Source of the DNA: Promethearchaeota archaeon
GTDB lineage: Archaea; Asgardarchaeota; Lokiarchaeia; Sigyniarchaeales; SOKP01
Direction of reading: 5' to 3'
Length of the DNA: 64,000 bases
Assembly (NCBI GenBank): GCA_029838195.1
Contig: JALGVJ010000011.1
Span: 1 to 64,000, forward strand
In this document: one piece after another, positions 1,706 through 61,786 of the stretch
Numbering within the stretch: position 1 is the stretch's first letter
Layout: the number at the start of each line of letters is the position of its first letter
The notes under the pieces: model-generated
Databases searched by the model: none
What the model was told of the DNA's origin: nothing
What the model saw: only the letters and a program-made list of their open reading frames with translations
Translations under genes and position numbers: made by a program

Positions 1706-4700
1706 TTAATTTTGAATTCTATTTTCTGTTGGAGGTTCCGAATGACGTGATGAAGTATGAGGTAAGTCTTTAATTTGATGATATATCTTATTTAAAGTAG
1801 AAAACACTTTTTTCGCCCAAATTTCTAATGATTCTTGTCGGAATTGTCCATTTTCCCGTAATAATAACTCATTTAACGCATCTAATTTTTTCCTGGACAT
1901 GCCAATAGATTTTGCAAAAGTATCTAAAAACGCCTCCAAGGTCATGCCTGTAATATTGCCCAAATATTGAATGTAAATCCTTCTTGCTCGACTCATGAAA
2001 TCACGATAACTCTCATGTCCCATGGAAATAACTATTTGGTATTCCCCTTTCTTATAATGCTTGCTCATTTTATATAAATGATATAAGAGCATTCCACTAC
2101 TTTCTGCGAGTTTGCGTTCAAAATCCCTAAAATTTTGTTCGACTTTTTCCTTTTCTGAAGTAAAGTTATTAGACATGCTTGTATCTGAAGAGATTCTTGA
2201 AGGAATATTCTGATACGATTCTGAAGTCGCTTTAGATTCTATTTTATACGATTGATAATCCTCAAGAGCTTTATAATACTGCTCTCCAATCCTAAAAGAG
2301 GGGCGGATGGCTTGAGAACCGGCGGCTGTAGGGGGAAAATGCTCCACTAAATACTGATGTTCCTTTAATATCCTAAATAATTCATCCCGAAGCTGTTGCA
2401 AGCGACGATTGCTCATGTTAGGTAGGTTCATGGCTTTTTCCTTCATGACCTCCAAAAGATATGTTTTTAGGGTGGCTTCATTAAGGTTCCCTACTTGCTC
2501 AATAGATTTGAGAGCCTCGAAAAACTGAATAACTTCAGGAATGAAGTCTTTAAATTTTCCCAAATCTTTTTCGAATAATGTGGATCTTAGTGTACTCTGA
2601 ATTCTCTGAATCCGTGTAGGAATTTTGAATCTCTCATATAATTCCTCCATGACTAAAGGCTTTGTCTCTTTAATCTCCCTCCACTCTACCTCAACAGGAA
2701 ACGGATAATCATTATCATGACGCTTGATAATGGTCTGGTCTTCTGGAAGTACTCGCAGATAGGAGAATTGAAGGGAATCATGACGAGTCTTGCTAAGCAA
2801 CCCTCGCATGTGAGTCGTATCTAAATTCATCAAATTACTTAAAATCTTGTAGTCATCTGAACTAATGATTCTAAATGTCGCATGATTGGGAAAATAGTTG
2901 AGGAAATATGGATGTAATCGAGAAATATTGGCAACCGAACAAATAATGCCCATTCGCATGTCTTTTAGCGAGGATAAAAAATGTTCTATCATGCTAAAAT
3001 CATCATAAAAAACGCGTTCAATGAAGTTCCGATCAAAGAAATAATCCACGTGAGGAAGGATGAGGTATTTTCTAATCATTGGTTGGTGATATCGAAAATA
3101 ATGAATGAATTTCAAGATAAGACTAAACATCGTAAAAATGCGAAGATTCAAAGAGGGCAATCGGGATAAATTAATGATAACTATTTTTTTTGATTCCATG
3201 ACTTCTTTCAAGGGAAAATCATGTTCCTCAAAAAATTGCTCCTCGGCTTTCAAAAGATAAAAAAACTCAGGATTATTAATTTCTTCTAATAATTCTAAAG
3301 TAGTTCGAGGGGAAGCTTGATTATTCATGAAAGAAGGCGGTTGCAAGTAATCATTTTCATACCCCATAGCAATACCATCAGCAGATAATTTTCGATCAAG
3401 GGATTCTTTCACGAATTTGCGAAGATATGCCGTAGTAGAAGGAGGTTTTTTGAACGCCAAACAAAATACTCTATAAAAATACTCTAAATATCTTACATTG
3501 TCAGGGTCATTGGGAATCCCCGATTGCAAGAGGTCCAAGATAAAATTCACGCCAATTGCCTGATAAGAAAATTTATCGATAAATAAGCTATTTTCCCCAT
3601 TCTCCCTATTCTCCCCCCGTATATTATCGAAATGTCTGATAAGCTTTGTCCAATTACCGTAAAAATCAAAAATAATGCAAGGACGATCTCGAATCGCTAA
3701 TTCTTTTGCGATTTTCATGAGAAGTAATTGTCGTTGTTCTTCCGTACCATGACTAATGAGTAAAGCATTTAATTGCTCTTCCGTAAACCCTGCGGGCCCT
3801 TGCTTTCCGTGATACTCTAAATCAATTCCATATCCTATCGTGATGAAATTTTCCAAATCTAAGGGAGTTAAAAATTCCGACCCTATTTTCGTAGCAATGG
3901 CTTTCTTTAATTCATCGGGCATATCAAAGAACGCTTGCAGTTCAGTACCTTGCATGACTTGATAAATCAAGTGCGTTCCGAAAGTGCGTATCATCTTGGT
4001 TTTTACCATTTGAACCGCTGTTCCCATGACTAACTTTCGAGAACGCAAGAATTCTACCTCTAAATTCTGTGAAAGGGATGCGGTTAATAAATTCGTTGCA
4101 AGAATATCCACTTGTCGTTTAGATTCCTCATCAATAGATTCTAAGTCCTCATTCGTTAAGTGATATTTTTTTATATTTATTTGAATAGATAACAGTAGCA
4201 TGGTTCGGTAAAATCCTCCGTGAGAACTCAAGTAGTTTTCTTTCTTATATTCCTCTATTTGTTTTTGAAATAATAAGGGATTTTCTGCTAAGAATGAACT
4301 TTTCTTGAGTTCTTTGGAGATATCTTTAACGCTCAAGGGTGAATTAATGAGAGTGTAGCTGAAACGTATTCCGTGTCCCATGATGGCTCTTAAAAATTTG
4401 GACATGTTCAAGTAATGAGGATATATTAAATTTCGAAGATTAAGCATCCGAATGATCATTTTCTTAGCACCAGATTGAATAAATAGCATTTCAGAATATC
4501 CTCGATATTGATAAAATCGCATTCGACGAAAAGGATTAATGATATCTAAATTCGAATGATGCCGGATTAAAAAATGAGTGAGTGAAAACAACGGCTTTCT
4601 CCACCACGCAAATAAAACGCCAATGAAAAGAAGAACAATTGATAACATTATCATTAAATTATTCACTTCATAATAGACTAATCCTTGATACCACATGGTA

Positions 4701-5617
4701 AAATAGATCAGCAAGAAAATGATTCGCAAGATGGGCTCTATAAATCTTACAAAAAACCTCGATAGTTCTTTTTCCTCATTTTTATCTTTTTCATCTTTAT
4801 CCTCAACACTGATAGGCAAGAAAAACGTTCTCAAAGCAAACAGCAGTTCCTTTCCCTGGAGTAATGTAAGCTTATAATGATGAAAATAATGAAATACAAA
4901 AGTTTTGAAAATATTAAGGCGTCTGTTTAATTCACTTGTTAAATCCTCTAAAAATGAAGGAATGAAAACGCCGTTCAAACACACGGGAATGATAATATAT
5001 ATCCGTGTATGCGTGGTTTTTTTTGCACTTTCCTCGTCCTCTTTCAGCACTTGTTCAAAGTGATTTTCCTTCAAGGCATATCTGGGCACCTGAACTACTT
5101 GATAGGTAAAAGGAATGCGTGCTGCTTTCCCCGCTAATGCCCTTAATAAAGAAATGAAAGATGCCGACACGTTTTCGGGTAAAATTTCCGTTCTGAACAC
5201 GCCCATTCCCACGTGCGTGAGCTCCCGTTTATTAGAAAAAAAAATCATCTCATCATGAGATTTTACTTTCCAAAATACCAAGTCCTCGAAAGGCCAGCAT
5301 TCAATTTTTTTATTAAATATCCGCCTAAATAAGTTTCTTAGTGAAAACCATTCCGCACTAAAAACAAATAAAAAAAACAATATCATGAAAAGTGCGTAGA
5401 AAAGATACAAGTAGAAAGGAATTAACAAGTTTCCAAGAAAAAACAAAAAAGAAAACACCATTATCGAAGCTACGAAAAATCGCAACATGATGATAAACAC
5501 GTTTAAATTCCTATAAGAAGGGTTCACGTCCCATAGATGATATTCAGAACCGGGCTTATTTGCTTCTAATAGAAACTTCATCACATCTTCGGGAGAAATA
5601 TTTTTATTTTTTGCCAT
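1706..5617 (-). CDS. Membrane-anchored HerA/VirB4/FtsK-superfamily-like protein with degenerate Walker motifs
   Basis: Two TM hairpins within a duplicated N-terminal module. 'LLISHGTEEQRQ..KELAIRDRPCIIFDFYGNW..IVIINLS..YLILPHVD' follows HerA/VirB4 motif order but lacks GKT and DE. Confidence 0.65.
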   Translation of the reverse strand: MAKNKNISPEDVMKFLLEANKPGSEYHLWDVNPSYRNLNVFIIMLRFFVASIMVFSFLFFLGNLLIPFYLYLFYALFMILFFLFVFSAEWFSLRNLFRRIFNKKIECWPFEDLVFWKVKSHDEMIFFSNKRELTHVGMGVFRTEILPENVSASFISLLRALAGKAARIPFTYQVVQVPRYALKENHFEQVLKEDEESAKKTTHTRIYIIIPVCLNGVFIPSFLEDLTSELNRRLNIFKTFVFHYFHHYKLTLLQGKELLFALRTFFLPISVEDKDEKDKNEEKELSRFFVRFIEPILRIIFLLIYFTMWYQGLVYYEVNNLMIMLSIVLLFIGVLFAWWRKPLFSLTHFLIRHHSNLDIINPFRRMRFYQYRGYSEMLFIQSGAKKMIIRMLNLRNLIYPHYLNMSKFLRAIMGHGIRFSYTLINSPLSVKDISKELKKSSFLAENPLLFQKQIEEYKKENYLSSHGGFYRTMLLLSIQINIKKYHLTNEDLESIDEESKRQVDILATNLLTASLSQNLEVEFLRSRKLVMGTAVQMVKTKMIRTFGTHLIYQVMQGTELQAFFDMPDELKKAIATKIGSEFLTPLDLENFITIGYGIDLEYHGKQGPAGFTEEQLNALLISHGTEEQRQLLLMKIAKELAIRDRPCIIFDFYGNWTKLIRHFDNIRGENRENGENSLFIDKFSYQAIGVNFILDLLQSGIPNDPDNVRYLEYFYRVFCLAFKKPPSTTAYLRKFVKESLDRKLSADGIAMGYENDYLQPPSFMNNQASPRTTLELLEEINNPEFFYLLKAEEQFFEEHDFPLKEVMESKKIVIINLSRLPSLNLRIFTMFSLILKFIHYFRYHQPMIRKYLILPHVDYFFDRNFIERVFYDDFSMIEHFLSSLKDMRMGIICSVANISRLHPYFLNYFPNHATFRIISSDDYKILSNLMNLDTTHMRGLLSKTRHDSLQFSYLRVLPEDQTIIKRHDNDYPFPVEVEWREIKETKPLVMEELYERFKIPTRIQRIQSTLRSTLFEKDLGKFKDFIPEVIQFFEALKSIEQVGNLNEATLKTYLLEVMKEKAMNLPNMSNRRLQQLRDELFRILKEHQYLVEHFPPTAAGSQAIRPSFRIGEQYYKALEDYQSYKIESKATSESYQNIPSRISSDTSMSNNFTSEKEKVEQNFRDFERKLAESSGMLLYHLYKMSKHYKKGEYQIVISMGHESYRDFMSRARRIYIQYLGNITGMTLEAFLDTFAKSIGMSRKKLDALNELLLRENGQFRQESLEIWAKKVFSTLNKIYHQIKDLPHTSSRHSEPPTENRIQN

Positions 5618-5802
5618 TATAATTCGTTTCCTCTCTTAACGTTTGAATTTTTAATTGGTTTCCTCATGATTTTTAAAAAATAATGATAAATTCTCATTAC
5701 CCTCTATTTCAGATAAAACTATTTAAATGAAAAAATTGGAAATCTTGTCTTCATTCTTAAAGAGTTTGTTTAAAATCAATTCTTATTATATCCGTGAAAT
5801 TT

Positions 5803-6162
5803 TTATTGATAGCCTCGGGAAAGCGTGGGATCATTTCCTGTAAAAAATTGAATGAACGAAAAGTCCAAGAACATGCCGGCTAAAATAAGAATTAACACGG
5901 CTTCCACCATGATTTTCACGCCTTTTAAACTTCTTCCGCAAAAGATTGTTAGTAATCCCCATACGAACATTATACCACCAAAAATCAAAAGCACGTTTCC
6001 CACGAAAACAAATATAGGATTTACGATGAAACCGAATGAAAAACTCATGCGAGCACGCCATGACGCTCCGAATAAGGGATATAATACCAATAAAAACAAG
6101 GCAATACCTATGAATGTGTATTCCACCATACTTGTCGTAGAATAATGTCTTTTTCTACTCAT
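5803..6162 (-). CDS. Small 3-TM protein, VirB2/TrbC pilin-like hairpin
   Basis: 119 aa with three hydrophobic helices and a 'GGIMFVWGLLTIFCGRSLKGVKIMVEAVLILILAG' hairpin. Lies directly upstream of the ATPase-like gene. Confidence 0.6.
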   Translation of the reverse strand: MSRKRHYSTTSMVEYTFIGIALFLLVLYPLFGASWRARMSFSFGFIVNPIFVFVGNVLLIFGGIMFVWGLLTIFCGRSLKGVKIMVEAVLILILAGMFLDFSFIQFFTGNDPTLSRGYQ

Positions 6163-6355: not shown

Positions 6356-8392
6356 ATGATAACTCAACCATTTATCGATCAAAATGAGGACCTTGAATTA
6401 ACTCGAATAAAGTCCATCGGAGAAAAAACAGCGGAATTCTTGAAACAAGCAGGGATTCTTGACATTAAAGACTTGGCTCAAGCTAAAAAGGCTGTCCTCA
6501 CTTCCATAAAAGGTATAGGAGAAAAAAAAGCGGTCTCACTAATTAATGAAGCTAAAAACTATTTATTGACAAGGATCCAAGAACTTGATCCAAAACAACA
6601 CGCGGACCAAGAAGAGGAAATCCTTGAGAGTGAAGAAAAAAGCATGGAAATAAATCAAGAAGAGAAGTCTTTAACAAATGAAGTTAATTTCGAGGTGCTT
6701 TCTAGAGATACCATTGAAGAAATCAAAGAAAATACGACTGACGAAAAAAGAGAGATGGAATTAATAGAAAATGGATTTGATGAAAATTTTACTGATGATT
6801 TTTTAGAAAATGAAATAACACTAAATGAAAATTCATTCGTGACTGACCTCCTTTTCAATCCTTCAACAGACCCAGTTCGAAAATCTATTGAAGAATTTCT
6901 GGAAGATGATAACAGTTCACTTCAAGAAAACCTCGAGATACCCAGTTCTACTACGTCTACTTCTAAATTAATTGAAAAACCGAATAATAAGAAACGATAT
7001 GCTAAAATTAAAACATTAAAAAAGCACCTTTCTTTTGGCAATAAAATGCCAAAATTAGAAAATTCCCTTTCCTCCATGAACACATCGCCATCTCTCTCTC
7101 AAGAGCAATCGATAAATAAAGCAACACCTCAACCGAACATTGAAAAAGATTTACTCTCTCAAGAAGAATTGGAGCTTAAAAATTTAAAACAACAAGAACA
7201 ACAAAAAATAGAAAATAAAAAAGATACTTTACAACTCACTTTAACCAATTCAACCTACGAAAAAAAACTAAAAAAAATAGAAAAAAGGCTGAACAAATGG
7301 AGATATATACTTTTCGAACCCTCCATCATGGAAGACTCAACTGATTCAAGTAAAATACAATTCTTAATGGCCAAACCCTTGCATAATGATAACACGATTC
7401 TAATACCTCTAATACTCGTGTCATTGGAACAAGACACCGGAATGGACAATACTACATATTTAGTATCAAAACATTCTGTTCGCCTAATAGATTCCTCCAC
7501 CTCTTCCAGCGATCTCATTTCATGCGATTTTAATTTCCTTTATTCTCAACAACTTGCTTTACATGAAAAAATCTTACAAGGAGATAAAAAATATATTGAA
7601 AAACTTTCCAATGCTCTGGGATTTCCCCTGAAATATAATAACATTACCATGCAACTGTATTCAAATAATAATAATGATAAAAATAAAAATAATAATAAAA
7701 AAGTGAAGATATATCCGTTTACCTTACATCTCACCAATGCGAATGTTAAAATCGCAAATAACAAGATGACTTACTGCTATAATCGTAAATATAACATGTA
7801 TTTTCACTCTTTAAATGGAAACCTTACTTCGCTGAAATCTTTTCTTGATTATTTGGAAAAAAAACTCATTGCTATACATTTCCTTGAAAAAGAAACTATA
7901 AATTTCAGGAATAAAGAGTATCTTGCTACCTTACATCGTAATCTAAAAATCACATCATGGATATCTCCGTTTATTTTCATTATGGGACTTTCATGCCTTT
8001 TTACACTGTTCTTGGAGAACATACCTTTCAAATCCCTGATCATTCTTGGAGGGGTCATGACCTTCATTTTCTATATAATACTCTTATTGGGTGTCATGAA
8101 AACTTCCTTATCTAAACGTGCATTGTTAAAAAAAACGCTACTACAACCCTATTTTTTGCGGAAACCTTTTTTGAAAAGAGAGAAAATCAGCCTTTTACAG
8201 AAGAATTTTAACAATGGTATGTTCGAACAATTCTTAAGAGAACGCTCAATTAGTAATGCATCTCAAGTATTAACTCTACTAAAGCAATTTACTCTTGACC
8301 CATACCTAAATAAAACAAAAAAACACAAAAATAAGCAGAATAATGAAGAAAAGAAAGAGGAAAATGAAAATGAAAGCAAATTTTTTGAATAA
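6356..8392 (+). CDS. Helix-hairpin-helix DNA-binding protein with two C-terminal TM helices
   Basis: N-terminal 'IKSIGEKTAEFLKQAGI..IKGIGEKKA' tandem HhH, acidic linker, two hydrophobic helices near the C-terminus. Confidence 0.75.
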   Translation: MITQPFIDQNEDLELTRIKSIGEKTAEFLKQAGILDIKDLAQAKKAVLTSIKGIGEKKAVSLINEAKNYLLTRIQELDPKQHADQEEEILESEEKSMEINQEEKSLTNEVNFEVLSRDTIEEIKENTTDEKREMELIENGFDENFTDDFLENEITLNENSFVTDLLFNPSTDPVRKSIEEFLEDDNSSLQENLEIPSSTTSTSKLIEKPNNKKRYAKIKTLKKHLSFGNKMPKLENSLSSMNTSPSLSQEQSINKATPQPNIEKDLLSQEELELKNLKQQEQQKIENKKDTLQLTLTNSTYEKKLKKIEKRLNKWRYILFEPSIMEDSTDSSKIQFLMAKPLHNDNTILIPLILVSLEQDTGMDNTTYLVSKHSVRLIDSSTSSSDLISCDFNFLYSQQLALHEKILQGDKKYIEKLSNALGFPLKYNNITMQLYSNNNNDKNKNNNKKVKIYPFTLHLTNANVKIANNKMTYCYNRKYNMYFHSLNGNLTSLKSFLDYLEKKLIAIHFLEKETINFRNKEYLATLHRNLKITSWISPFIFIMGLSCLFTLFLENIPFKSLIILGGVMTFIFYIILLLGVMKTSLSKRALLKKTLLQPYFLRKPFLKREKISLLQKNFNNGMFEQFLRERSISNASQVLTLLKQFTLDPYLNKTKKHKNKQNNEEKKEENENESKFFE

Positions 8393-8423: not shown

Positions 8424-9488
8424 ATGAAAAAAAGAAAAATGATAAGCGTGATTATTGGTTTCAGCTTACTATTCATGGGTGTCTTGCAATTACCGCCAGA
8501 GAGTAAAGCTTTTTCCTCAGAAGAAATCTTGGTGGATAAGGTATTTACCTTTCACACCCCTTCCGAGGACTTGGTTAGAGCAGTTCAGTTCAAGGAAAAT
8601 AAAACCTACTACATCCGCATGGAAGTGGTGACTCCGCATGCGTGTAATATAAGCATTAAGATCAACGATACCAGCCAAGATCCTTTATACGATATTTTCT
8701 ACGCCGCATTGAGCGGAGAATCCGCTTATGGCTATGTGAAAGAAGTACCCTTCGTGGCGGCAAGAAACGGCACGCACGTGGTCATGTTTCACGTGGAATG
8801 CCTGCTCAACATGAATATTTACATTTCTATTTATCGAGCAGAAGATTTAGTGGACTTAAGCAATACAATGGCATTTGATGTCCTCAAGATTAACCAAACT
8901 TTGACCACGCATTATTTCAATCTCACGCTTCTCACGGATACCATGTACCGCTTTCATTTCAGCCGAGTTTCCACGTTTCAAGAAAATATATCATTGCACA
9001 TTTACTTGACTTTCTGGGCACGAGCACCAGATGTGAATGATACAGAATTTCTGCTATTAATTAATGAAAGCATGCCACAAATAGGTGAAACCATATCCAC
9101 GTTTTTAGGCACTGCCATTAACGGCACCTATGAATTTTGGTTTGAATTAGAGACAAATTTAATCCCTTTCAATTTTTTATACAAGGTCGTGGAAGAACGA
9201 GAAATATCAGAGGAAATCTCAGGCAATTCTACGGTTCCTATTGATAATCAATCTGTATCTAATGGGAACAATGAAACAGACGATGAGGAGGATGATGCCC
9301 CAAAAGAAGAAGAACAGCCTTCTACTAATGATACAGATACACCTAATGAAAATATCACGATACTCGAAGGAACGATACCTCCACAGATTCGAACATTATT
9401 CGCGTGGGGAACTGTTGGTTTAATCTCAACAGCAATTATAGCCTTAATTTACACGCGCAAAAGAATACCTTTAGAATTACGGACTTAA
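8424..9488 (+). CDS. Secreted, C-terminally anchored surface glycoprotein
   Basis: Signal peptide, many N-x-S/T sequons, acidic linker, C-terminal TM followed by RKR. Confidence 0.8.
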   Translation: MKKRKMISVIIGFSLLFMGVLQLPPESKAFSSEEILVDKVFTFHTPSEDLVRAVQFKENKTYYIRMEVVTPHACNISIKINDTSQDPLYDIFYAALSGESAYGYVKEVPFVAARNGTHVVMFHVECLLNMNIYISIYRAEDLVDLSNTMAFDVLKINQTLTTHYFNLTLLTDTMYRFHFSRVSTFQENISLHIYLTFWARAPDVNDTEFLLLINESMPQIGETISTFLGTAINGTYEFWFELETNLIPFNFLYKVVEEREISEEISGNSTVPIDNQSVSNGNNETDDEEDDAPKEEEQPSTNDTDTPNENITILEGTIPPQIRTLFAWGTVGLISTAIIALIYTRKRIPLELRT

Positions 9489-9640: not shown

Positions 9641-10327
9641 TTAAATTCGGCTGATTAATAGAATTAGCCTTTTCAATAGAAGTCTTATCAAACAGATTGA
9701 ATATTTTATCACGTAATAAAAGAGAAAAAGGCACCCAAATATCATAATGGAAAGAACCCATTCTTCAAATGTTTGATTCAAGAGATAAGTTGTATAAATT
9801 GCATTGGTGATGAAAAACGATATTATAACTAAAAAGAATTGGTATAATGTATATGTACCATTTTCCCCTAACGTGAGGAACACGTTTTTAATATCTACGC
9901 CACTTGGAGCCGCTCCAATAAATAATGAAATAATCAAGTATACCAAGAAAAATACCATGAGTGGCTCAAGTGAAGTAGAAAACAATATCTTCAGGCAAAG
10001 ATAGATCAAATACGAGGTAATATAAAGTGGGGCAAATGAGATCAAAAACATCTGGAAAAAGGTGATCCGCTGGTTTCTTTTAAAGCTCACGTAGCCGTGA
10101 TCATGAGCAACAAAAATATTTTTCGGCGTGACTCCTACCAGGAGAGAAATGATGTAATGGGAAAGCTCATGAATGGCCACGCCCAAAAATGACGAGCAAT
10201 ATATAAATGCCCGCAAAAGGCTACTTCTAAAATAACCAACTATTGCTTGGATGAATAGAGATGAAATGAAAATACCGATGAACATGGGCACATTGTCTAA
10301 TAAAAATATTTCTAATATAGCCATCAT
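9641..10327 (-). CDS. M50-like intramembrane zinc metalloprotease
   Basis: Polytopic, with 'AIHELSH' HExxH, 'ISFAPLY' and 'APSGVD' motifs. Confidence 0.75.
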   Translation of the reverse strand: MMAILEIFLLDNVPMFIGIFISSLFIQAIVGYFRSSLLRAFIYCSSFLGVAIHELSHYIISLLVGVTPKNIFVAHDHGYVSFKRNQRITFFQMFLISFAPLYITSYLIYLCLKILFSTSLEPLMVFFLVYLIISLFIGAAPSGVDIKNVFLTLGENGTYTLYQFFLVIISFFITNAIYTTYLLNQTFEEWVLSIMIFGCLFLFYYVIKYSICLIRLLLKRLILLISRI

Positions 10328-11137: not shown

Positions 11138-11755
11138 ATGGAACACGAGTACTTGAAAAAAGACTTATCCCCCTATATCATTTTTAAATGTCCTTCCTGT
11201 CAAAACTTCTTGTATTTCAAGCAAGGAAAAAAGTCCAAGACCTGTACCCGCTGTAATAGACGATTTGGTCTCAAGCCTATTTTAGCTAATAAAATCATGA
11301 TAGTAAAAGGAATGACGGCGGCCGTCAATAAAGTGAAAGAATTACAGAACCGACGAGCCCTTAAAGAATTAGGAGAGGCCCCGAAACTACACGCTACCAA
11401 TCAGTATCAATTAAAACGATCATCATCATTTTTTATAGAAAATAAAAATAGTCATGAAAGTATCTCTTTTAAGAAAAAAATGAGAGATGAGGGATATAAT
11501 AAATCATTAGAAAGTAAGAAAAAAGTGAGAGATGATGGAGATCATGAATCATTAGAAACATTAACAAAACAAATGAAATTAGAACTATGGAAAATGTTCA
11601 AGACACATGGAAAATTACCAGCGCACGTTATTAACTTGATTTTTCAACACCACGACATTTCAAATAGAGAGAGAAATAAAATCCTGAGTAAATTAATCTC
11701 AGAAAAAATCGTGCTCCCTCAAAAAAATAATTATTTTATCATAAAAAATATGTAA
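11138..11755 (+). CDS. DUF1922-like Zn-ribbon protein with C-terminal wHTH
   Basis: 'YIIFKCPSCQNFLY..KTCTRCNR' CxxC pairs; SD-like GGAG upstream. Confidence 0.7.
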   Translation: MEHEYLKKDLSPYIIFKCPSCQNFLYFKQGKKSKTCTRCNRRFGLKPILANKIMIVKGMTAAVNKVKELQNRRALKELGEAPKLHATNQYQLKRSSSFFIENKNSHESISFKKKMRDEGYNKSLESKKKVRDDGDHESLETLTKQMKLELWKMFKTHGKLPAHVINLIFQHHDISNRERNKILSKLISEKIVLPQKNNYFIIKNM

Positions 11756-12306
11756 AAATAGATATTCTTTGGCAAGAACACAATTCTTGTTTTTTTTTCA
11801 AGCTCAAGTGTTTGTCATGAGTTATGAGGAGATGGAGTACAAATAAGGTCTCATCTGCTGATAAATAACCCCCCAATTGCGTTTTATTTTCGACACATAG
11901 AAAGAGCTCAGTGAACTCAAGAGTTTCACGTTCTCTTTCGTCATGAAATAGGAGTCTATGACCCAAATCTTGTAGGGAAATTTGAGAGGATATTCAAAAG
12001 GACCGCCGTAGTAATGCGTATGATCCTGGAACACACTCTTGAACTTAATAGGTGGATGATCCGACTCATCTGTTGCTTGATCTGCTCCCGAGCGATGTTC
12101 TCAGCAATGTTTTTGATTGAGGCTCTCTCATCCACTAAGAGGTCGTAGGCAAATGCCTTCATGGCCTTTTCCTTGGTGACCGGTAAACGCAAGCCATGAT
12201 CTTCAGAGAAATTCATAATAAACGGGTTTTCTTTCACGAGTAACATATTAAAATAAAGTGACATCCCTTTCTTATAAAATCGTGTAAGGCATGGGCGATA
12301 TACCAC
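11739..12306 (-). pseudogene. Frameshifted gene of unknown function
   Basis: Three overlapping minus-strand ORFs (11956-12306, 11822-12034, 11739-11966) read as consecutive pieces. The last is homologous to 18931-19200. Confidence 0.55.
11766..11853. repeat. Diverged 88-bp direct repeat, copy 1 (copy 2 at 18982-19069)
   Basis: Ungapped alignment at offset 7216: gaacacaa..gctcaagtg..atgaggagatg..aagg..ctca. Confidence 0.85.
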
Positions 12307-12469
12307 CTTTTTTACACGCAGATCTCTCTCATATCGAAATAGAGGTGCTATGATTTATAAAACTTCCGAGATACATTAAATTGTCGAACTTTAGATTAAA
12401 ATATAGCTATTTAAATTATTCATTTATTTAGAATTTCTCCTAATTTTCATAATAAAATCACTTAATAAG

Positions 12470-12499
12470 TTATGAATAGTTATTCATAATATTTAAATA
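12470..12499 (+). promoter_or_regulatory. Palindromic operator plus TATA box
   Basis: TTATGAATA-GT-TATTCATAA perfect inverted repeat (12470-12489), then TTTAAATA (12492-12499). Confidence 0.75.
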
Positions 12500-12597
12500 C
12501 TAGAATCATCTAATAATACTTGAAGAAATTAAAATTAAATCAAGTAACTTGAAGTTACTTGAAAAAATTAAATTTAAATTAAAAAAAATAGGAGGAG

Positions 12598-12816
12598 ATG
12601 AATATGCCAAGAGGAGATGGAACAGGTCCTACTGGTTTAGGACCCAAGACGGGACGTGCGTTAGGTTATTGCGCAGGATATAATAGTCCTGGTTTTACTA
12701 AAGGTCCAGGTCAGGGATTGGGTCTTGGAAGAGGTCTTGGAAGAGGTCTTGGAAGAGGTTCTGGAAGAGGATTCGGAAATGGTCGGGGCAGAAACCGTAG
12801 AACGTGGAGATATTAG
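12598..12816 (+). CDS. DUF5320 family protein
   Basis: MPRGDGTGPxGLGPxTGRxLGYCAGY signature, GRGL repeats. GGAGGAG SD suggests the start at 12604. Confidence 0.9.
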   Translation: MNMPRGDGTGPTGLGPKTGRALGYCAGYNSPGFTKGPGQGLGLGRGLGRGLGRGSGRGFGNGRGRNRRTWRY

Positions 12817-13131
12817 TAGATTAAACAATGCCGATCATCAACTATTTTTTTTACATTATTTTTTATATTTTTTGATTCTTGCTACTATTTTATTCTATTT
12901 TAGGTTTTTTAATTTTTTTTAAATATTCTTTAAATGATTTCAGCATTAGTTATGCTATATTATTAAACAAGCACATCATGAAAAGATTTAAATCTTGTTA
13001 TAAAAATGCTTGATGCTCAAACAAAACTTAAAGATAAATTTCTTTTATCTATTTTATTTAAAGTAATAAATTTTAGAGAAAATAGTCATTAAAAGTATTT
13101 CTTAATTTTTATAATAAATTAATCTCATGGA

Positions 13132-13161
13132 TTATGAATGATTATTCAGAATCCTTAAATA
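13132..13161 (+). promoter_or_regulatory. Second copy of the palindromic operator plus TATA box
   Basis: TTATGAATG-AT-TATTCAGAA followed by CTTAAATA at the same spacing as at 12470. Confidence 0.7.
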
Positions 13162-13231
13162 GGTAGATTAACTAATATTACATGAAAAAATTAAAAAATA
13201 TAATAATAAAAAAGGAGATGATGGAATAAAA

Positions 13232-13642
13232 ATGCCAAGAGGAGATGGAACAGGCCCAGCTGGCTTGGGGCCAATGACAGGTCGTGGTTTGGGTTATTGC
13301 GCAGGTTATAGTACTCCCGGATATACGAAGGGTCCTGGTCTTGGTTGGGGTCGCGGCTGGTGGGGTCGAGGTCGAGGTCTTGGTTGGGGCCGAGGATGGT
13401 GGGGTCGAGGATGGTGGGGTCGAGGATGGTGGAGATGGGGTGGTTATTATCCCTATGCTGCTCCAGTAGCAGTAACTGCTCCAGTAGTAGCACCATATAC
13501 CACACCAGTGGCTCTAAATCCTACTGACCAATTAGCGATGCTAAAACAAGAAAAAGAATACTTGGAATCCAATTTAAAAGGGATCCAAAACGCATTAAAA
13601 GATATTTCAAAAAAGATTGAAGAATTAGAACAAGAAAAATAA
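13232..13642 (+). CDS. DUF5320 family protein
   Basis: Same signature, GRGWW repeats, C-terminal coiled coil. Confidence 0.9.
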   Translation: MPRGDGTGPAGLGPMTGRGLGYCAGYSTPGYTKGPGLGWGRGWWGRGRGLGWGRGWWGRGWWGRGWWRWGGYYPYAAPVAVTAPVVAPYTTPVALNPTDQLAMLKQEKEYLESNLKGIQNALKDISKKIEELEQEK

Positions 13643-13797
13643 TTTTTATTTTTTTTTTCCTTGATATATCCATCTTATAATTAAAGGAAAAAATTTTAGT
13701 GATTAGAAGCGAACTTTAGTTTGTAAGGAATTTTTTTTATTCTTATTTTATTAAAATTTTAAGCAGTATTTTCAATTATTTTATTAGATTAATATTC

Positions 13798-18703: not shown

Positions 18704-18712
18704 TTCTATCAA

Positions 18713-20298: not shown

Positions 20299-20300
20299 AA

Positions 20301-49634: not shown

Positions 49635-49652
49635 AAATATCACGTGATATTT
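49635..49652. other. 18-bp perfect palindrome between convergent genes
   Basis: AAATATCACGTGATATTT. Confidence 0.6.
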
Positions 49653-51795: not shown

Positions 51796-52896
51796 TTATA
51801 TTGATTTATTCGAGAAAATCTCATCTAATGTAAGCTGAACATGCTTGGATTTTTTTCTGAATGTTTCAAACGCAGAAATACAAGAATGATATTTATTAAT
51901 TAACTTATTTAAATTGTTTTCTACTCGAGCTTGATTGAGATGATGGTCTTTACAAAGAAAGGCACGCACTTTTTCTCTTATGGGAGCCGTCCAAGTGAAC
52001 GGTTCTTTTGGCGTGATTACTTCAGGAAAGAGAAAAATGTTCCGAACCTTAAAAATTATTTCAGGCGTGAGAGAGGAGAAATAATAATTTTTATTTCTTT
52101 CACGGTCAATGATATTTTCAAGTGTTTCATGAGCTTTTATTAATTTCAAGGCGGTTTTTGATCCAACATGTTTGATGCCCGGAAAATAATCCGTTTTTAA
52201 TAATAAGACTAAATCAATGAGTTGAAAGTAATTAATTCCCATTAATTTAAGGCTTTTCTTGAGGTCATATAACTTAGGCTCAATTTTTTGATAAACCCAT
52301 TTATTTTTGATCTTTCTTCTCATGGACTTTGTTAAATTCTGAATGACGTGAGGACTTCCGAACAAGAGCGAATCAAAATCTTGAGAGTTCATGTAATCCA
52401 CGAGATGACTTTTTACTAAATGAGCACATTGAGCTTCAGCGGAAGAAGGAGATTCAATATAAGGTACACCCAATAAACTTAATAAAATTTTAGATTCTTC
52501 TACAACGGAAGGCCATAAAAATTCCTTGCTCAATCCGATTTGACGAGCTGTTTTCCAATCCTTGTTTTTTAAGGCTTTTTCGTGCATGCGTTTCGCATAT
52601 CGGAAGTCATTGAGTTGATCTTTAGTAATGATGCGTTTTAACTCCGAGACTTTGCCATCAAAACAAAACACAGGAAGAATCCGCTTTGAATACAAGAATA
52701 AAATCTTGTATAAAATTCCATAAAGGTGATTGATGACTCGCTGCGTTCTGTCAATGAATAAGGAATCGGTATTCTTAGCAGTGAAATTTAACGTGCTAAA
52801 TAAAAAATTAGGAGTATCAATTGCAATGACTGTTCCTTCCAAGGAGGTGAGAGAAATAGGTTCAGCATGGAGTAGGTCAGCAATTTTCACTCCCAT
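51796..52896 (-). CDS. fen: Divergent FEN1/XPG-family flap nuclease with PIP box
   Basis: MGVKI, AIDTPN, FDGK, AEAQ, SQDFDSLLFG, TDYFPGI, QLTLDEIF. Confidence 0.88.
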   Translation of the reverse strand: MGVKIADLLHAEPISLTSLEGTVIAIDTPNFLFSTLNFTAKNTDSLFIDRTQRVINHLYGILYKILFLYSKRILPVFCFDGKVSELKRIITKDQLNDFRYAKRMHEKALKNKDWKTARQIGLSKEFLWPSVVEESKILLSLLGVPYIESPSSAEAQCAHLVKSHLVDYMNSQDFDSLLFGSPHVIQNLTKSMRRKIKNKWVYQKIEPKLYDLKKSLKLMGINYFQLIDLVLLLKTDYFPGIKHVGSKTALKLIKAHETLENIIDRERNKNYYFSSLTPEIIFKVRNIFLFPEVITPKEPFTWTAPIREKVRAFLCKDHHLNQARVENNLNKLINKYHSCISAFETFRKKSKHVQLTLDEIFSNKSI

Positions 52897-52988: not shown

Positions 52989-53624
52989 ATGATGGAAAAT
53001 GTAAATTATATTGAAAAAAAATTTCATGAAAACAATGTTAATGGAAATTTTATAAACCTTGGTGCGACTGATTTCAACCAAGAAATAGATAAACATGATG
53101 TAATAAATGTTCTATTACGTTATTTCTCTATTCCTGTCCTTAGAGCTTCTTCTAACCGCATGAAAACAGCAATGGTATCATTTTTAGCTCGAATTCTTAA
53201 TAAAAATAAATCATGGATTCGTGATTCTATAAACGAATTTTTAGAAAACTGCCAATCGTTTAAAGAGATTCTAAAACAAGAATTAAAAAAGTTGAAATTG
53301 GACGGATGCTTCGACCCCATCGAAACGCACATTAACCTCTTGAATCGCTTTCTCGAACAACTTCATTCCTTTACAAATGCGTTCGATATGGAACGTGCCA
53401 AGATAAACATGTTAATCCTCATTGATAAATTAGACGCTAAATCTAAGTTCATGCCTCTTTTTAACCTAAACATTCATCTTGCTTTTTTGATATATATTAC
53501 CGATGTTAAGGATTACGAGGTTTTGAGAGCTAATATTTCTCCTCTTAAGTTAGAAAATATTTGCTACATGACAAATTGTAAAGAAAAACAATTGTTTCAA
53601 TTAAAGGCGATCCTTTCTCCTTAA
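52989..53624 (+). CDS. Paralog of 48982-49572 (cyclin/TFB-repeat-like C-terminus)
   Basis: 'LDAKSKFMP..HLAFLIYITD..LKLENICYMTNC' aligns with 'LDQKNYCP..QLALILFVTD..ILQVNIRNLCKT'. Confidence 0.6.
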   Translation: MMENVNYIEKKFHENNVNGNFINLGATDFNQEIDKHDVINVLLRYFSIPVLRASSNRMKTAMVSFLARILNKNKSWIRDSINEFLENCQSFKEILKQELKKLKLDGCFDPIETHINLLNRFLEQLHSFTNAFDMERAKINMLILIDKLDAKSKFMPLFNLNIHLAFLIYITDVKDYEVLRANISPLKLENICYMTNCKEKQLFQLKAILSP

Positions 53625-53691: not shown

Positions 53692-54447
53692 CTATGGCAA
53701 ATAAAAGGTAATGCCTTGATCAGTAATTTCAAATTTTAACGAAATCTTTTTCTCATTATAATGGATGATTAACCTTCTAAGCCTACCATGTGAATGAGCT
53801 TCCATGAGATGAGGTGGAAAAAGCTCAAGAGTCACTCCCTTTATCCTCTCAAATAAAGAGGAATAAAAAACATTATCCTGAGAAGTAGTCGGATTCGTAG
53901 AAAACTCATGAATGAGAAATACAAGAATATTTTTAAATGAACAATAAAATAAGAGAGGCACCAATTGCTTTTCAAAAAAATCATTAATAATAACTTCTCT
54001 TATATTCATGTCCTCTTCCATGGATAAACGCAATCGCAAGTGATGAGAGATGTTATCCACGACCATACATTTGAGATAAGGAATATTAGGCAAGTATTTT
54101 TCAAGAAGTCCTTGAAAAAGTAATTCTTGTTTTTCATATGAAAGGAGGACAGAACGAGCCGGAAAAATGAAAAAGCGCTCATGAAGGGATGAAGATTTAT
54201 TATTATAAAATATTTCTAATTGTTTGAGTCGCTTAACGGGAAAATGTTCGGAAGCTTGAATCCACGCGCACGCATGACGTGATCCGAGTAAATGATAGAC
54301 TAAATAGAGAACAAGATTAGTTTTTCCGCTTCCTGCTTTCCCCTTTACATGAATGACATTTTCTCTTTTTAAAATAAGAGAAATAATTTCCAAGAGGTCT
54401 TTTTCATTCAAAATCTTTAAACTTCTTTTTTCTTTTTTTCGAGCCAT
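53692..54447 (-). CDS. RadB/Rad51-paralog-like RecA-fold ATPase
   Basis: GKAGSGKT, WIQASEHFPVKRL, VVDNISHHLR, FEITDQGI; no N-terminal HhH. Confidence 0.8.
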   Translation of the reverse strand: MARKKEKRSLKILNEKDLLEIISLILKRENVIHVKGKAGSGKTNLVLYLVYHLLGSRHACAWIQASEHFPVKRLKQLEIFYNNKSSSLHERFFIFPARSVLLSYEKQELLFQGLLEKYLPNIPYLKCMVVDNISHHLRLRLSMEEDMNIREVIINDFFEKQLVPLLFYCSFKNILVFLIHEFSTNPTTSQDNVFYSSLFERIKGVTLELFPPHLMEAHSHGRLRRLIIHYNEKKISLKFEITDQGITFYLP

Positions 54448-54763
54448 TATTATTTTCTCTTAAAGCTTGTAAAACCCTTTTCTCAAGATTATCATGAGAT
54501 CTGTTAGGCAAGATAATAGTATTATCACGCTTGGAAGAATTGTTTTCCGCATTTTTAAGGTTCATGGCTAATAACATTAAGGGTAACCATTTATCCGTTC
54601 CATCAGAAGAATTTCCTTTTATTTTCAAGTGTTTTTTGTATTTCACGAACAGGAAATAGACGATAATGACGCACGTGATATAAATGACATATTGGGGATT
54701 GGTTTGAATGAACACGATTAAGAACATTATCAAGATTAGATAGAATAAACATTTAAATGTCAT
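54404..54763 (-). CDS. Small 2-TM membrane protein overlapping the RadB-like gene
   Basis: ATG 54763 has an AGGAGG SD; ATG 54805 abuts the promoter motif (54808-54822). Confidence 0.65.
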   Translation of the reverse strand: MTFKCLFYLILIMFLIVFIQTNPQYVIYITCVIIVYFLFVKYKKHLKIKGNSSDGTDKWLPLMLLAMNLKNAENNSSKRDNTIILPNRSHDNLEKRVLQALRENNNGSKKRKKKFKDFE

Positions 54764-55384
54764 TTTTTTGATACTACCTCCTGTATAGTATTTAAATACA
54801 TTCATTCTATATAAAGAAAAAAAGTTCTATCACGCAAATAGAAGAAAAAATACCCAATTGAACAATGTTTATTTTCTTATGAGAAATTGTATTAAAGAAA
54901 AGATTTTATAGAATTGGTTTAATTTAATATAGATCAATCAGTTTTTGGAAATATTTTTTATTCAATATGCCAAAAAAATGGAAAAAATAAAAGAAAATTA
55001 TTATTAAACCGTTTTCCTTAAGGATTCAAAAAAGCTCATATTATTAAAATTCTAATATTTCACGATGTCTTTCTACACCTAATATTTTGAGAGAAGAACC
55101 CAAATTCTCACCAAGATCATCAAATCAAGAAGAGAAGAATTACATTAAGAAGCCTAATTAATTCTGGATTTTGGAAGAGTGTATATTTATATTTAAGAAA
55201 TGAATTAATGATTAACACATTTAAAAGAATAGCTTTAATTTAAAAAATTTTGATCTCAAAACAAGCCCAAAAGTGATCAACACTTTTTGTGAGATTGATT
55301 TTTTGCTAAATATTGTTCATTTATTAGGACATTAAATGAAATAATTCCATCATAAATATAAAGGATATTAAAAATGAGGTCAAA

Positions 55385-55459: not shown

Positions 55460-56851
55460 ATGGCATCTAAAACTAATAAAAATTTGGTTTTTACGGAATT
55501 CTTAACTTGTGATATTTGTGGCTCGACTGATATTGTCGAAACAATGGAAGGTTATACCTGTAGAAATTGCGGTATTGTACTCAACATGCAACGTTTAGAA
55601 TATCACAGGCCATATAACGAAGCTTGTTTACAGCACGCACCTCTTAATTCAACCCAAATTGGAACTAAACAAGAACGCTTGAATCATACAAGATCTCCCC
55701 ATTTACAGAGATTAAATAAACTTCATTCTATTTCCTCGATATCAAATGAAAAATTTATAATTGAAACCGCCAGAAAAGAAATCTCTCGTCTTTTAGAGAT
55801 TCTTGGTTATTCTACTTCGGAGATGAATCAAGATATCTTGAAAAATGTTAAAACTATTTGGCAAAAAATAGAAAAAGGAACAAAATTTAGAAATGTTGAG
55901 AAATTAATCCCTGCCGTGATCTACGTTTATTTTAAGATTAAATGCCTCTTCATTAATTGGTCCAAACTTTTAGAGAATTCTAAACTCTCGAAAGAAGAAT
56001 TTCGCGCTGCTTTAATGACCGTCATTCGATTTCTAGACCATGAGGTGAGAATTGCTTATCTCAAGGGAACGAGAAAACGATATTGCGAGCGAAAAATTTT
56101 ACGAATAGCAGAAGAATTTGGTTTGGGAATGGACTTTTATCATCAAGCCGTGGCGCTCATGTATAAATTATGGAACATTATTCAAAATACGAAAGAAGAT
56201 GTCATCGTGGGAGTAACATGCAGTCTCATTGCTCTCACATCCGCTTATCGAGAGAAAATTTCTGTTTCTAAAATATGCTCTTATGTAGGCATTCAGATGT
56301 CCACTGTTCAAAGTCAGGTAAAAAAACGCATCATTGAGAGGTTCAAGATTCCCGGATTTATAAGTCTTGTTAAATCTGCAAACCTCATTGAAAAAATCTT
56401 AAAAAAATTGGGCATTTTAAAAGAAAAACTCACTCATCGGAGACAGAAAAAAATTCATGATGATGAGAAACAAGCTGAAGAGAAACAAGATATCAAAAGA
56501 AATTCGGAGATTAGTTTAGAAGAAGAGGAGAAGGATGCCATTAGAATAATTAAATCATTTGAATTAGAATTCATGGTTTCAAAAAATAATAACGCCAAAA
56601 AGGCATGTTATATTTTAAAGAGCAGTAATGGAAAACACGGATATTTATTGTTACTTGATGAAAACGATAAAAAACAAGGTCATTTTCAAGGCTTTAAAAA
56701 ACGATTTCAGAAAAAATCAATTAGATTAGTAAATCATCAAACAAAATTTTTTAATAATCCCTTGATACAAGTTAATGCGATTTTAAAATTTAAAACGGGT
56801 AAAGGACCTCCTGAAAAAGAACATATAATTTCATTTCACTTCATCAGATAA
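55460..56851 (+). CDS. tfb: Divergent transcription factor B (TFB/TFIIB) paralog with C-terminal extension
   Basis: CDICGS..YTCRNCG Zn ribbon; two cyclin repeats ('LIPAVIYVYFK', 'ISVSKICSYVGIQMSTVQSQVK'). Confidence 0.85.
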   Translation: MASKTNKNLVFTEFLTCDICGSTDIVETMEGYTCRNCGIVLNMQRLEYHRPYNEACLQHAPLNSTQIGTKQERLNHTRSPHLQRLNKLHSISSISNEKFIIETARKEISRLLEILGYSTSEMNQDILKNVKTIWQKIEKGTKFRNVEKLIPAVIYVYFKIKCLFINWSKLLENSKLSKEEFRAALMTVIRFLDHEVRIAYLKGTRKRYCERKILRIAEEFGLGMDFYHQAVALMYKLWNIIQNTKEDVIVGVTCSLIALTSAYREKISVSKICSYVGIQMSTVQSQVKKRIIERFKIPGFISLVKSANLIEKILKKLGILKEKLTHRRQKKIHDDEKQAEEKQDIKRNSEISLEEEEKDAIRIIKSFELEFMVSKNNNAKKACYILKSSNGKHGYLLLLDENDKKQGHFQGFKKRFQKKSIRLVNHQTKFFNNPLIQVNAILKFKTGKGPPEKEHIISFHFIR

Positions 56852-61074: not shown

Positions 61075-61564
61075 GGTAAATTCTAATCTTTAAAAATTAT
61101 CTTGCCCGTTAATTCTTATATTAACCTTTATTAAAATGATTTATAAATGTTTTCTTCTATTATTTTTTCTATATTTTTTTTATTATATTTTCTATTTTCT
61201 TTTTATAAAAACTTCTTATAATTCTTCACGGTAACCAAAAGAATAAAATTTAAGCGCCATTTTGATTAGGAGATTTTTTAAATTTCAAAAAAGAGAGAAA
61301 GAAGAAAAAGATAAAAAATAATGAATTTCTTAATGAAGATCATATAAAAAATAGATTCCTTCTAATAACGGATAATTCGAAAGATTAAATAAAAATATAC
61401 TTGATAGAAACTCATTATTTTGATATATTGTTTTGTTATTCTATTTATGGAAAAAATTTTCTTTAAAATGGAACATCTAATTTTTTTTCATTTAAATAAT
61501 AAGAGTAAAAAAAAGATTCAATAAAGGAATAATGAAGAAAAAATAAAATAAAAAGGGAATTATC

Positions 61565-61786
61565 ATGATATTAGATTATTATTCTCGTGTTTTAGATGGT
61601 GTAGAATTTCTCATTGCCGTTGGCTCTCTCGTGGGCCTTTTTGGTGTTATCATTGGATTTATTTTATTCATTTTTGGTTCTACTAGATACCGTTTACGTA
61701 TTTTATTTTTTATTATTATTAGTTGTCTATTATTAATCGCATGTGGATGGGCCACTGGTTTACGTTATTTTCATATTCGAATATAA
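61565..61786 (+). CDS. 2-TM hairpin protein (pilin-like), paralog of 45431-45643
   Basis: EFLIAVGSLVGLFG..CGWATGLRYF. Motif promoter at 61483-61498. Confidence 0.75.
   Translation: MILDYYSRVLDGVEFLIAVGSLVGLFGVIIGFILFIFGSTRYRLRILFFIIISCLLLIACGWATGLRYFHIRI

Follow-up and report, generated by a model that had tools for sequence, protein, structure and literature searches.

What use would an Asgard archaeon have for a second set of recombination enzymes, encoded among membrane and surface proteins and apart from its housekeeping repair genes? The question is raised by the 64 kb at the start of the 112-kb contig C89, here called the window, from a 4.5-Mb metagenome-assembled genome (MAG) of the Promethearchaeota (Asgard archaea), which is 96.6% complete with 7.9% contamination. 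In this region, spare paralogs of recombination enzymes travel together with a membrane operon, surface proteins, a pair consisting of a Roadblock protein and a GTPase, and a divergent homologue of transcription factor B (TFB), and the clustering, judged by synteny and promoter-motif statistics, is far beyond chance. A first-pass annotation of the window had proposed such a shared programme and had not recognised it as described; in line with this, neither the cluster nor its promoter or TFB is described in the literature that we searched. We are highly confident that a conserved, co-regulated system is real. The best explanation of the data is that the window carries one copy of a regulon of ~25 genes, conserved, dispensable and vertically inherited, which is rearranged here and interrupted by insertions, and which belongs to one family of Loki-type Asgard archaea, with a more divergent version in the sister family. 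The purpose of the system can be named only tentatively: DNA transfer between cells coupled to homologous recombination is the function we favour, at a probability somewhat short of even.

Gene order and promoters of the cluster

To define the gene set, window proteins were compared by tblastn with the 60 kb around orthologues of RadA3, the RadA paralog of the window, in nine relatives, followed by clustering of open reading frames (ORFs) over 19 loci. Twenty-five families are common to at least 7 of the ~14 genomes compared, and compact clusters of 25–30 kb are found in G002, G003 and G011 as well as on two public MAG contigs. Several units recur. A membrane operon, encoding a helix-hairpin-helix (HhH) membrane protein, proteins with four and two transmembrane (TM) segments and a HerA-like membrane protein (HerAm), is divergent from a pair formed by p33002 and a Hel308 paralog (Hel308p). 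A DUF1922 protein, a Hef paralog (Hefp), p10461 and a surface protein form a second unit, with the TFB homologue adjoining, and an M50-like protease, the small membrane protein tm54404 and a RadB-like protein a third. RadA3 recurs as a unit of its own; S8424 and Zn105 are followed by a 74-aa hairpin and tm5803; and the remaining units are a FEN1 paralog (FEN1p) with p48919 and an RPA-like protein, and the Roadblock protein with the GTPase and p49651. Synteny between membrane and repair genes, whose joint occurrence the first-pass annotation had presumed, holds in 12 or more genomes, and the ~25 families as a set are syntenic in 12–14 related genomes.

Genome G000 itself has two more loci related to the window. 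The locus on contig C49 (G000:C49:14750-31000) encodes a TFB homologue, S8424, HhH-TM, tm5803, HerAm and w1 at 71–89% identity, and may be a true duplicate or may derive from a second related organism in the bin, considering the 7.9% contamination. The locus on C50 (G000:C50:35000-55000) is more distant and encodes a TFB homologue, surface proteins and a membrane operon. Both share the promoter motif of the window, and neither has paralogs of RadA, FEN1 or Hel308.

The motif, exemplified by TTTTTTCTTTAAATA at 43588-43602 on the plus strand, consists of a T-tract in the position of the TFB recognition element (BRE) followed by a TATA box. Upstream regions in the window carry this sequence and close variants, with other perfect copies at 47572(+), 6281(-), 22633(-), 31537(-) and 52932(-). 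The pattern TTTTTT[C/A]TTTA[A/T]ATA has 34 copies in the 4.5-Mb genome, 15 of them in the window (0.5 expected), six in the C50 locus and three in the C49 locus, so that three loci with 2.8% of the genome account for 24 of 34 copies. For C49 and C50, locus bounds were drawn after the protein matches were known; the window count is independent of these bounds. Promoters combining a purine BRE with a TATA box number 65 genome-wide, none of which lies in the three loci. When sites with up to two mismatches, located at most 170 nt upstream and in the right orientation, are counted, 22 of the 41 window ORFs have a motif, against a background of 1.3% of random 170-nt stretches, which bears out the earlier claim that most genes share the promoter and that hel308 does not. 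The ORFs without a motif are mostly second genes of operons or unrelated insertions. The spacing between motif and start codon is consistent with leaderless or short-leader mRNAs. One motif, at 57282(+), has no downstream ORF of 80 aa or more, and those at 62949-63995 are followed by small ORFs without annotation.

The several unrelated genes interspersed in the window would fit a variable region in which unrelated paralogs are neighbours by chance. In our view, however, this explanation is already refuted by synteny, by co-occurrence and by a locus-specific promoter enriched ~25-fold, and we assign it practically no probability.

The promoter follows the cluster across genomes. In five other genera, the syntenic loci hold 7 of 11, 7 of 22, 9 of 20, 5 of 14 and 8 of 24 of the genome-wide motif copies, whereas in four relatives without the system the motif is scattered, at control level. 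In the sister family, represented by the single-contig genome G038, the pattern TTTTTT[C/A]TTTA[A/T]ATA is absent at the locus. A T-tract variant, TTTTTTG[C/T]TTTTATAA, occurs there in only three copies in 4.3 Mb, all at the locus; because the variant was derived from those three sites, only the absence of further copies is informative.

A candidate reader of these promoters is encoded within the cluster. TFBp (55460-56851, plus strand) is a divergent homologue of TFB/TFIIB that combines a Zn ribbon and two cyclin repeats; its last helix is altered, and ~130 aa are added as an extension. In hhalign it matches the canonical TFBs of the genome (97.4% probability, E 9e-12) over 248 columns that begin with the Zn ribbon and end with the last helix, and a profile search finds TFIIB in PDB (E 3e-4), whereas the Pfam TFIIB model misses TFBp while detecting eight canonical TFBs in the genome. 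The four Zn cysteines are invariant in the TFBp family, whose members are 409–463 aa long. The last helix of TFB is the element that contacts the BRE. Co-occurrence of factor and promoter suggests that TFBp may read the T-tract promoters; its own upstream region looks canonical. Together, a cluster-specific promoter and a cluster-encoded TFB homologue support the idea of a shared programme. The genome as a whole has eight canonical two-repeat TFB genes and three divergent TFB homologues, a large set of initiation factors.

Distribution and descent

The distribution of the system was scored with four markers (RadA3, FEN1p, HerAm and the TFB homologue) in 24 genomes of the family. Presence is close to all-or-none: all four are present in 13 of 24 genomes, none in four (95–99% complete), and seven are mixed; five of the mixed genomes are 78–90% complete, some highly fragmented, and two are the near-complete G004 (98%) and G008 (96%). 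Genera g3, g4 and g6 each include genomes that have the system and genomes that do not. HerAm is present in 16 of the 24 family genomes and in 46 of 61 in a wider family sample; in full length it is essentially absent elsewhere in the phylum, with the exception of one genome of another family. In that genome, a full-length HerA-like membrane protein (G231:C266:2134-3930) scores 701 bits and could reflect lateral transfer or a binning error. The sister family has the more divergent version seen in G038. Another single-contig genome of the sister family, G032, carries a 124-residue fragment 60% identical to RadA3 (G032:C1:1881471-1881839), while FEN1p, HerAm and the TFB homologue were not found there by single-protein queries at the thresholds used; the fragment may be what is left of a system since lost.

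FEN1 and FEN1p sequences of 15 genomes separate in a maximum-likelihood tree into two clades with 100/100 support. The FEN1p clade repeats the genus pairs of the housekeeping clade, with the sister family outside, and its branches are about twice as long. Window GC ranges from 0.25 to 0.37 and brackets the genome mean of 0.335, with the lowest values in non-cluster stretches. Searches of the window with Pfam, PHROGs and ARAGORN turned up neither an integrase, a relaxase or a replication initiator nor a capsid gene or tRNA target. In G024, the genes are scattered over 170 kb and distant chromosomal sites, and all are retained.

These data bear on the possibility that the cluster is a resident or domesticated mobile element, conjugative-like or virus-derived, with its own transcription factor, promoters and recombination genes and with membrane genes serving its own transfer. 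Such an origin would be in keeping with a presence that is patchy even inside genera, with a private TFB and promoter type, with a VirB4-fold protein, with the three related loci in this genome and with the single full-length HerAm in G231. The FEN1p tree, the missing mobile-element genes, the unremarkable GC and the persistence of the complete gene set in G024 even when split over distant sites instead favour an old chromosomal system that is often lost, and we regard a mobile element as quite improbable.

Protein content and proposed function

Genes for RadA, a RadB-like protein, RPA, XPF, Hef, Hel308, FEN1 and Zn-ribbon proteins were all identified by Pfam and NCBIfam at the places given in the first-pass annotation, which had also judged nearly all of them atypical. 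Indeed, the DNA enzymes of the window score under curated equivalog cut-offs throughout, with the exception of one RadA model, and separate, better-scoring copies elsewhere in the genome, located on C7 and C1 for RadA, C46 for FEN1, C91 and C19 for Hef, C70 for Hel308 and C84 for XPF, indicate that the second toolkit is real.

RadA3 (43658-44914, plus strand) has a perfect promoter motif 70 nt upstream, a Pfam Rad51 domain (250 bits) and HHH_5 domains at both ends, the C-terminal HhH being extra. It passes the NCBIfam RadA model NF003301 (334 bits, cut-off 259) and stays under the cut-off of TIGR02236 (293 bits, cut-off 361). Compared with RadA of P. furiosus, the two other RadAs of the genome score 352–368 bits and RadA3 214 bits. 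The best PDB matches of RadA3 are eukaryotic RAD51 (221 bits, with archaeal RadA at 214), whereas the housekeeping RadAs favour archaeal RadA (352–368 bits) over eukaryotic RAD51 (274–288 bits). We read the RAD51 scores of RadA3 as a sign of divergence, with no specific tie to eukaryotes. The housekeeping RadA on C7 has an N-terminal Zn-ribbon-like extension; introns in the housekeeping RadA matches were considered and rejected, the apparent in-frame stops being terminal stop codons taken into the alignments.

FEN1p (51796-52896, minus strand), with a perfect promoter motif 36 nt upstream, scores 273 bits against TIGR03674, under the cut-off of 352. It retains six of the seven active-site acidic residues (D27, D80, E154, D173, D175 and D236) and a C-terminal PIP-like box, QxxLDxIF, and is probably active as a nuclease that binds PCNA; the FEN1 paralog clade has S or A in place of the first E of the canonical EGEAQ stretch. 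The housekeeping FEN1 lies ~3 kb from a canonical HerA (DUF87, 100 bits; G000:C46:11575-16458), and a further canonical HerA is found at C89:97264, on the same contig as the window and 33 kb past it.

Hel308p (33406-36015, plus strand, 869 aa) is preceded by the 100-aa Cys-rich protein p33002 (from 33002, plus strand), the pair (33002-36015) being divergent from the membrane operon. With its best model it scores 422 bits where the cut-off is 887, and with NF040935 342 bits where it is 1200; judged by these scores it is a Hel308-like Ski2-family helicase, with no equivalog status. Hefp (36052-38271, minus strand) reaches 563 bits against a cut-off of 610, and an ERCC4 nuclease domain was undetected in this ORF, whereas the gene on C91 is a full Hef with nuclease and the one on C19 another Hef helicase. 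The stand-alone XPF/ERCC4 nuclease paralog (27125-27874, minus strand; ERCC4 88 bits) is 64% identical to its paralog on C84 and lies in the locus in only three genomes, which makes it a peripheral member. The RadB-like protein (53692-54447, minus strand) is a RecA-fold P-loop ATPase with the Walker A sequence GKAGSGKT, whose gene overlaps that of tm54404; its match to the RadB model (E 1e-8) is far under the cut-off. The RPA-like OB-fold protein (45798-46745, plus strand) matches replication factor A models at E 5e-25, under their cut-offs. The Zn ribbon Zn105 (45079-45396, plus strand) is present in the locus of 12 genomes, and the DUF1922 Zn-ribbon protein (11138-11755, plus strand) flanks Hef in nine.

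Hef/FANCM, XPF, Hel308/HELQ, RAD51 with its paralogs, RPA and a flap nuclease constitute the toolkit of fork and crosslink repair. The main rival to DNA transfer builds on the match between this toolkit and the gene set of the window: an internal regulon for DNA damage and fork repair, anchored at the membrane, in which membrane proteins would tether damaged DNA or signal stress, e.g. by intramembrane proteolysis, with no DNA passing between cells. The PIP-like box of FEN1p likewise points to PCNA-linked work. The system is dispensable, however, and is lost whole within genera while the housekeeping repair copies stay, and we consider this explanation unlikely, with further evidence on both sides coming from the membrane module.

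The central protein of that module, HerAm (1706-5617, minus strand, 1303 aa), has four to five N-terminal TM segments and a cytoplasmic domain of HerA/VirB4/TrwB fold. An AlphaFold model of residues 480–1100, built from 19 sequences (core pLDDT 75–92, overall mean 60), gives VIA Z values of 18.2 with DndH-C, 17.9 with VirB4 (286 aligned residues, rmsd 4.4) and 16.7 with HerA, with TrwB in the range down to 14.6, as compared to 8–10 for generic RecA folds. The top Foldseek match is HerA (E 7e-8), and Atlas features, including a CedB cluster, agree with the fold, while phmmer of HerAm against PDB found no match. VirB4, HerA and DndH are tied as nearest fold, so the model does not resolve the subfamily. 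The earlier reading as a HerA/VirB4-like protein, to be abandoned in the case of an unrelated fold, therefore stands with respect to the fold. The nucleotide-binding motifs, however, are degenerate in the whole family: in the window protein the Walker A position reads SHGTEEQRQ and the Walker B position LPHVD, and the consensus of 19 aligned members is NGTxxSRE and IDLFFD, respectively. In both copies in this genome HerAm adjoins w1, cut here by the contig start to its C-terminal 514 aa (1-1545, plus strand); the full-length paralog on C49 has 666 aa and is 89% identical, and the search for w1 in the loci of the other genomes compared found none. With no Walker A motif and only a weak DUF87 match (E 0.004), w1 was rejected as an active partner of HerA.

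The HhH-TM protein (6356-8392, plus strand) combines an N-terminal (HhH)2 domain (HHH_5, 46 bits), a long acidic linker and a C-terminal TM hairpin at residues 532–586. A whole-protein search was misleading in presenting it as a genus-only protein; domain-wise comparison identifies the long first genes of the membrane operon as its homologues. In G002, G011, G015, G018 and G024, that first gene encodes an (HhH)2 domain (HHH_5, 39–48 bits), and HhH-TM can be aligned to the G018 protein over the HhH domain as well as over the C-terminal membrane region. On the strength of these alignments, the membrane-tethered HhH protein noted in the first-pass annotation, a putative DNA binder, is a conserved member of the system across genera.

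In the window, the membrane operon (29907-32901, minus strand) comprises p31630, tm30812 (4 TM) and p29907 (C-terminal 2 TM) and has motifs at 31537 and 32936; in other genomes it is directly followed by the gene for the HerA-like protein. The conserved operon thus combines an (HhH)2 protein tethered to the membrane and two polytopic membrane proteins with a HerAm-type protein that has no catalytic motifs. The candidates for a VirB6/CedA-like channel, namely tm30812 and an 8-TM protein in some loci, have no family match in Pfam, NCBIfam or Atlas, the Atlas search with tm30812 returning only unnamed clusters, below 0.9. Three pilin-sized TM proteins answer to the pilin-like hairpins of the first-pass annotation: the two-TM hairpin hp74a (45431-45643, plus strand, 70 aa) after Zn105, its second copy hp74b (61565-61786, plus strand) with a motif 81 nt upstream, and tm5803 (5803-6162, minus strand), a small protein of 3–4 TM with a motif upstream, found in nine genomes. 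Hairpins of this kind, 70–75 aa long, are kept in 11 genomes. A further two-TM hairpin, tm54404 (within 53692-54805, minus strand), has a conserved cytoplasmic tail; a predicted complex of this tail with the RadB-like ATPase scored 0.00, which is uninformative either way. The protease of the first-pass annotation (9641-10327, minus strand) is a candidate M50/S2P-like membrane metalloprotease, with a HELSH motif, five predicted TM segments and a score against PF13398 (M50B) of 21.5 bits, under the cut-off of 26; it occurs in 13 genomes, always followed by tm54404 and then by the RadB-like gene.

Two surface proteins, each found in 12 genomes, confirm another element of the earlier description. 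S8424 (8424-9488, plus strand) is a type-I surface protein with a signal/anchor, two beta-rich FGTA repeats, an acidic stalk and a C-terminal TM segment, and SurfPT (38403-43241, minus strand, 1612 aa) carries, between a signal sequence and a C-terminal TM segment, SBBP propeller repeats and an alpha/alpha-toroid domain. The claimed MglAB pair was decided by fold search: the profile of the Roadblock-like protein (47638-48183, plus strand) gave a non-significant E of 0.41 against PDB, whereas its structural model (pLDDT 83.5) matches MglB and Asgard Roadblock chains (E 3e-7, TM-score 0.66–0.79). Together with the adjacent small Arf/Ras-like GTPase (48203-48823, plus strand; Arf 40.6 bits, cut-off 22.3) and preceded by a perfect motif, it is, by its modelled fold, one half of an MglAB-like pair.

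DNA transfer coupled to recombination is the best explanation that we can offer because surface proteins, a VirB4/HerA-fold complex, a membrane-tethered HhH protein, a private RadA, enzyme paralogs and an initiation factor are combined in one system. In such a process, the TFB homologue would recognise the T-tract promoters and switch the whole gene set on together; the surface proteins and the Roadblock-GTPase pair might set up cell contact or position; the membrane complex could hold or pass DNA at the cytoplasmic face of the membrane; and RadA3, the RadB-like and RPA-like proteins, FEN1p (via PCNA), Hel308p, Hefp and XPF would process the DNA and recombine it with the chromosome.

Several observations weigh against this proposal. 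The Walker A lysine and the Walker B acids are missing in 19 of 19 aligned HerAm members, making HerAm most likely a non-catalytic scaffold, and no second P-loop motor was found in the membrane operon. HhH-TM has no signal peptide, and together with the basic residues flanking the TM hairpin this suggests that its HhH domain probably faces the cytoplasm, unlike the external ComEA. No channel of the VirB6/CedA or ComEC type was recognised by Pfam, NCBIfam or Atlas, as the first-pass annotation had already remarked. For internal repair of forks or crosslinks, the DNA enzymes of the window would be just as suitable. A search for expression data found none, the sequencing runs listed being DNA metagenomes with partial shares only.

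The internal repair regulon gains from the same features, since the HhH and HerA-like domains look cytoplasmic, HerAm is without ATPase motifs and no channel was found. What it explains with difficulty are the two surface proteins, the TM hairpins and the membrane operon with its VirB4/HerA-fold protein, all of which belong to the core of the system in ten or more genomes.

Several conserved proteins belong to no known family or resemble one only weakly. These include p10461 (from 10461, plus strand, 203 aa), which flanks Hef in nine genomes; p21432 (21432-22529, minus strand), weakly GNAT-like, with a perfect motif upstream and present in six genomes; p46789 (46789-47472, minus strand), conserved in five; and p49651 (49651-51687, minus strand), which follows the GTPase gene in other genomes. 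The paralogs p48919 (48919-49572, plus strand, ~210 aa) and p52989 (52989-53624, plus strand) had been taken for TFB-cyclin-like proteins, a suggestion that gets no support from a search of PDB with their profile, which had no match. The membrane-operon proteins, hairpins, S8424, p10461, p48919, p46789 and f25 had no match in NCBIfam or Pfam, and PHROGs had none for ten unknown proteins.

The view of the window as one programme holds for the ~25 families and does not extend to stretches at roughly 12000-20300, 23100-26700 and 28177-29403, which hold unrelated genes absent from the cluster in the other genomes compared. These encode a DUF5320 protein, an Hhe/PDC-S37 helicase-nuclease, a TauE fragment, three DUF169 proteins and saccharopine dehydrogenase; ThiF is another unrelated gene product of the window that is missing from the cluster elsewhere. 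The DUF5320 protein (13232-13642, plus strand) contains a run of GRGW/GWGRG repeats, part of which appears again at 12604-12702. The stretch 23166-26665 holds three tandem DUF169 paralogs, mutually 29–43% identical, preceded by a TauE/SafE fragment of 87 aa that is probably what remains of a gene. The helicase-nuclease (14156-18703, plus strand, 1515 aa) comprises DUF4011, an SF1 helicase, an MTES_1575 nuclease and DUF3320, and in PADLOC it matches PDC-S37 with 1366 bits and Hhe with 632 bits, indicating a single-gene defence candidate. With such a genuine defence gene inside the window, the cluster might be an anti-virus or anti-plasmid defence island whose helicases and nucleases act on foreign DNA. 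Secondary matches of Hel308p to the Hachiman helicase HamB (153 bits), HerA-fold proteins known from several defence systems and the patchy distribution would agree with such a role. Hel308p, however, scores far higher with Hel308 models (422 bits), no other genome compared has the Hhe gene in its cluster, and PADLOC gave nothing for HerAm, the RadB-like protein, p49651, p57430, w1 and XPF and only a weak match for RadA3 (mad8, 27 bits, E 7e-7). As a recombinase, an RPA-like protein and a PCNA-binding FEN1 would also be atypical as defence parts, we consider a defence island very improbable.

Comparison with known systems

RadA paralogy in Asgard archaea has been published, with a grouping that is less robust for Lokiarchaea, and Rad51 and DMC1 fall outside all sampled Asgard RadA paralogs, having arisen after the split from them (PMC12722695). 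On present evidence RadA3 is therefore not an ancestor of DMC1. The gene context of the RadA clades appears, from a text search of that paper, to be left aside there (PMC12722695). Links to competence, mating or the origin of sex are drawn by analogy. It is a rather doubtful proposition, though a specific one, that the system is a switchable, chromosomally encoded programme for DNA exchange between cells, driven by a dedicated TFB, with RadA3 as its own recombinase and with private accessory enzymes, and that it embodies a split between general and specialised recombination independent of Rad51/DMC1. If true, it would provide a prokaryotic counterpart of that split in the closest relatives of eukaryotes and would bear on the organisation that gene exchange and recombination had before meiosis evolved. 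Exchange aside, a divergent TFB, apparently paired with a non-canonical, BRE-like T-tract, would make a clean case of promoter-level specialisation in archaea, and ~10 conserved families of unassigned function gain a defined context. Related species that differ only in the presence of the whole system allow natural comparisons of recombination rate.

In bacterial competence, a dedicated initiation factor (ComX/ComK) switches on DNA-handling membrane proteins, a second single-stranded DNA-binding protein and recombination proteins, and ComEA serves as a membrane-anchored HhH DNA binder. The logic of the Asgard system is similar, with a dedicated factor and promoter, membrane proteins that may handle DNA, and recombination proteins. 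The parts, however, are not homologous: the HhH domain here seems cytoplasmic, and neither a ComEC-like channel nor type IV pseudopilus genes were found.

Among archaea, Ced in Sulfolobales and Ted in Thermoproteales are DNA-import systems derived from domesticated type IV secretion systems, with Ted loci having Rad50 and HerA-like genes as well (PMC9905601). Like these, the Asgard system encodes a VirB4/HerA-fold membrane protein together with small two-TM and polytopic membrane proteins, is chromosomal rather than plasmid-borne and is tied to homologous recombination. It differs in that there is no match to any Ced family at the sequence level, HerAm is without Walker A/B motifs and no 6–7 TM channel similar to CedA/VirB6 was recognised; the hairpins are candidate pilins by their size. 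The Asgard set, in turn, adds HhH-TM, a second recombination set, surface proteins, a protease, a GTPase pair and its own TFB.

The regulation of Ced offers a further parallel. In the DNA-damage response of Sulfolobales, TFB3 induces ups and ced, and TFB3 and Ced co-occur across genera (PMC6101594, PMC6101591). TFB3 is a truncated TFB that acts via its Zn ribbon and a coiled coil (PMC6101594), whereas TFBp has the Zn ribbon, both cyclin repeats and a long C-terminal extension and is not of the TFB3 type; it is, moreover, encoded inside the cluster, and its presumed targets share a distinct T-tract BRE. The likeness lies in a TFB paralog that goes with membrane or DNA-transfer genes tied to recombinational repair, by demonstrated induction in Sulfolobales and by presumed regulation here, and in this respect the TFB3-dependent induction of Ups pili and Ced is the closest experimental analogue of the programme proposed for the Asgard cluster.

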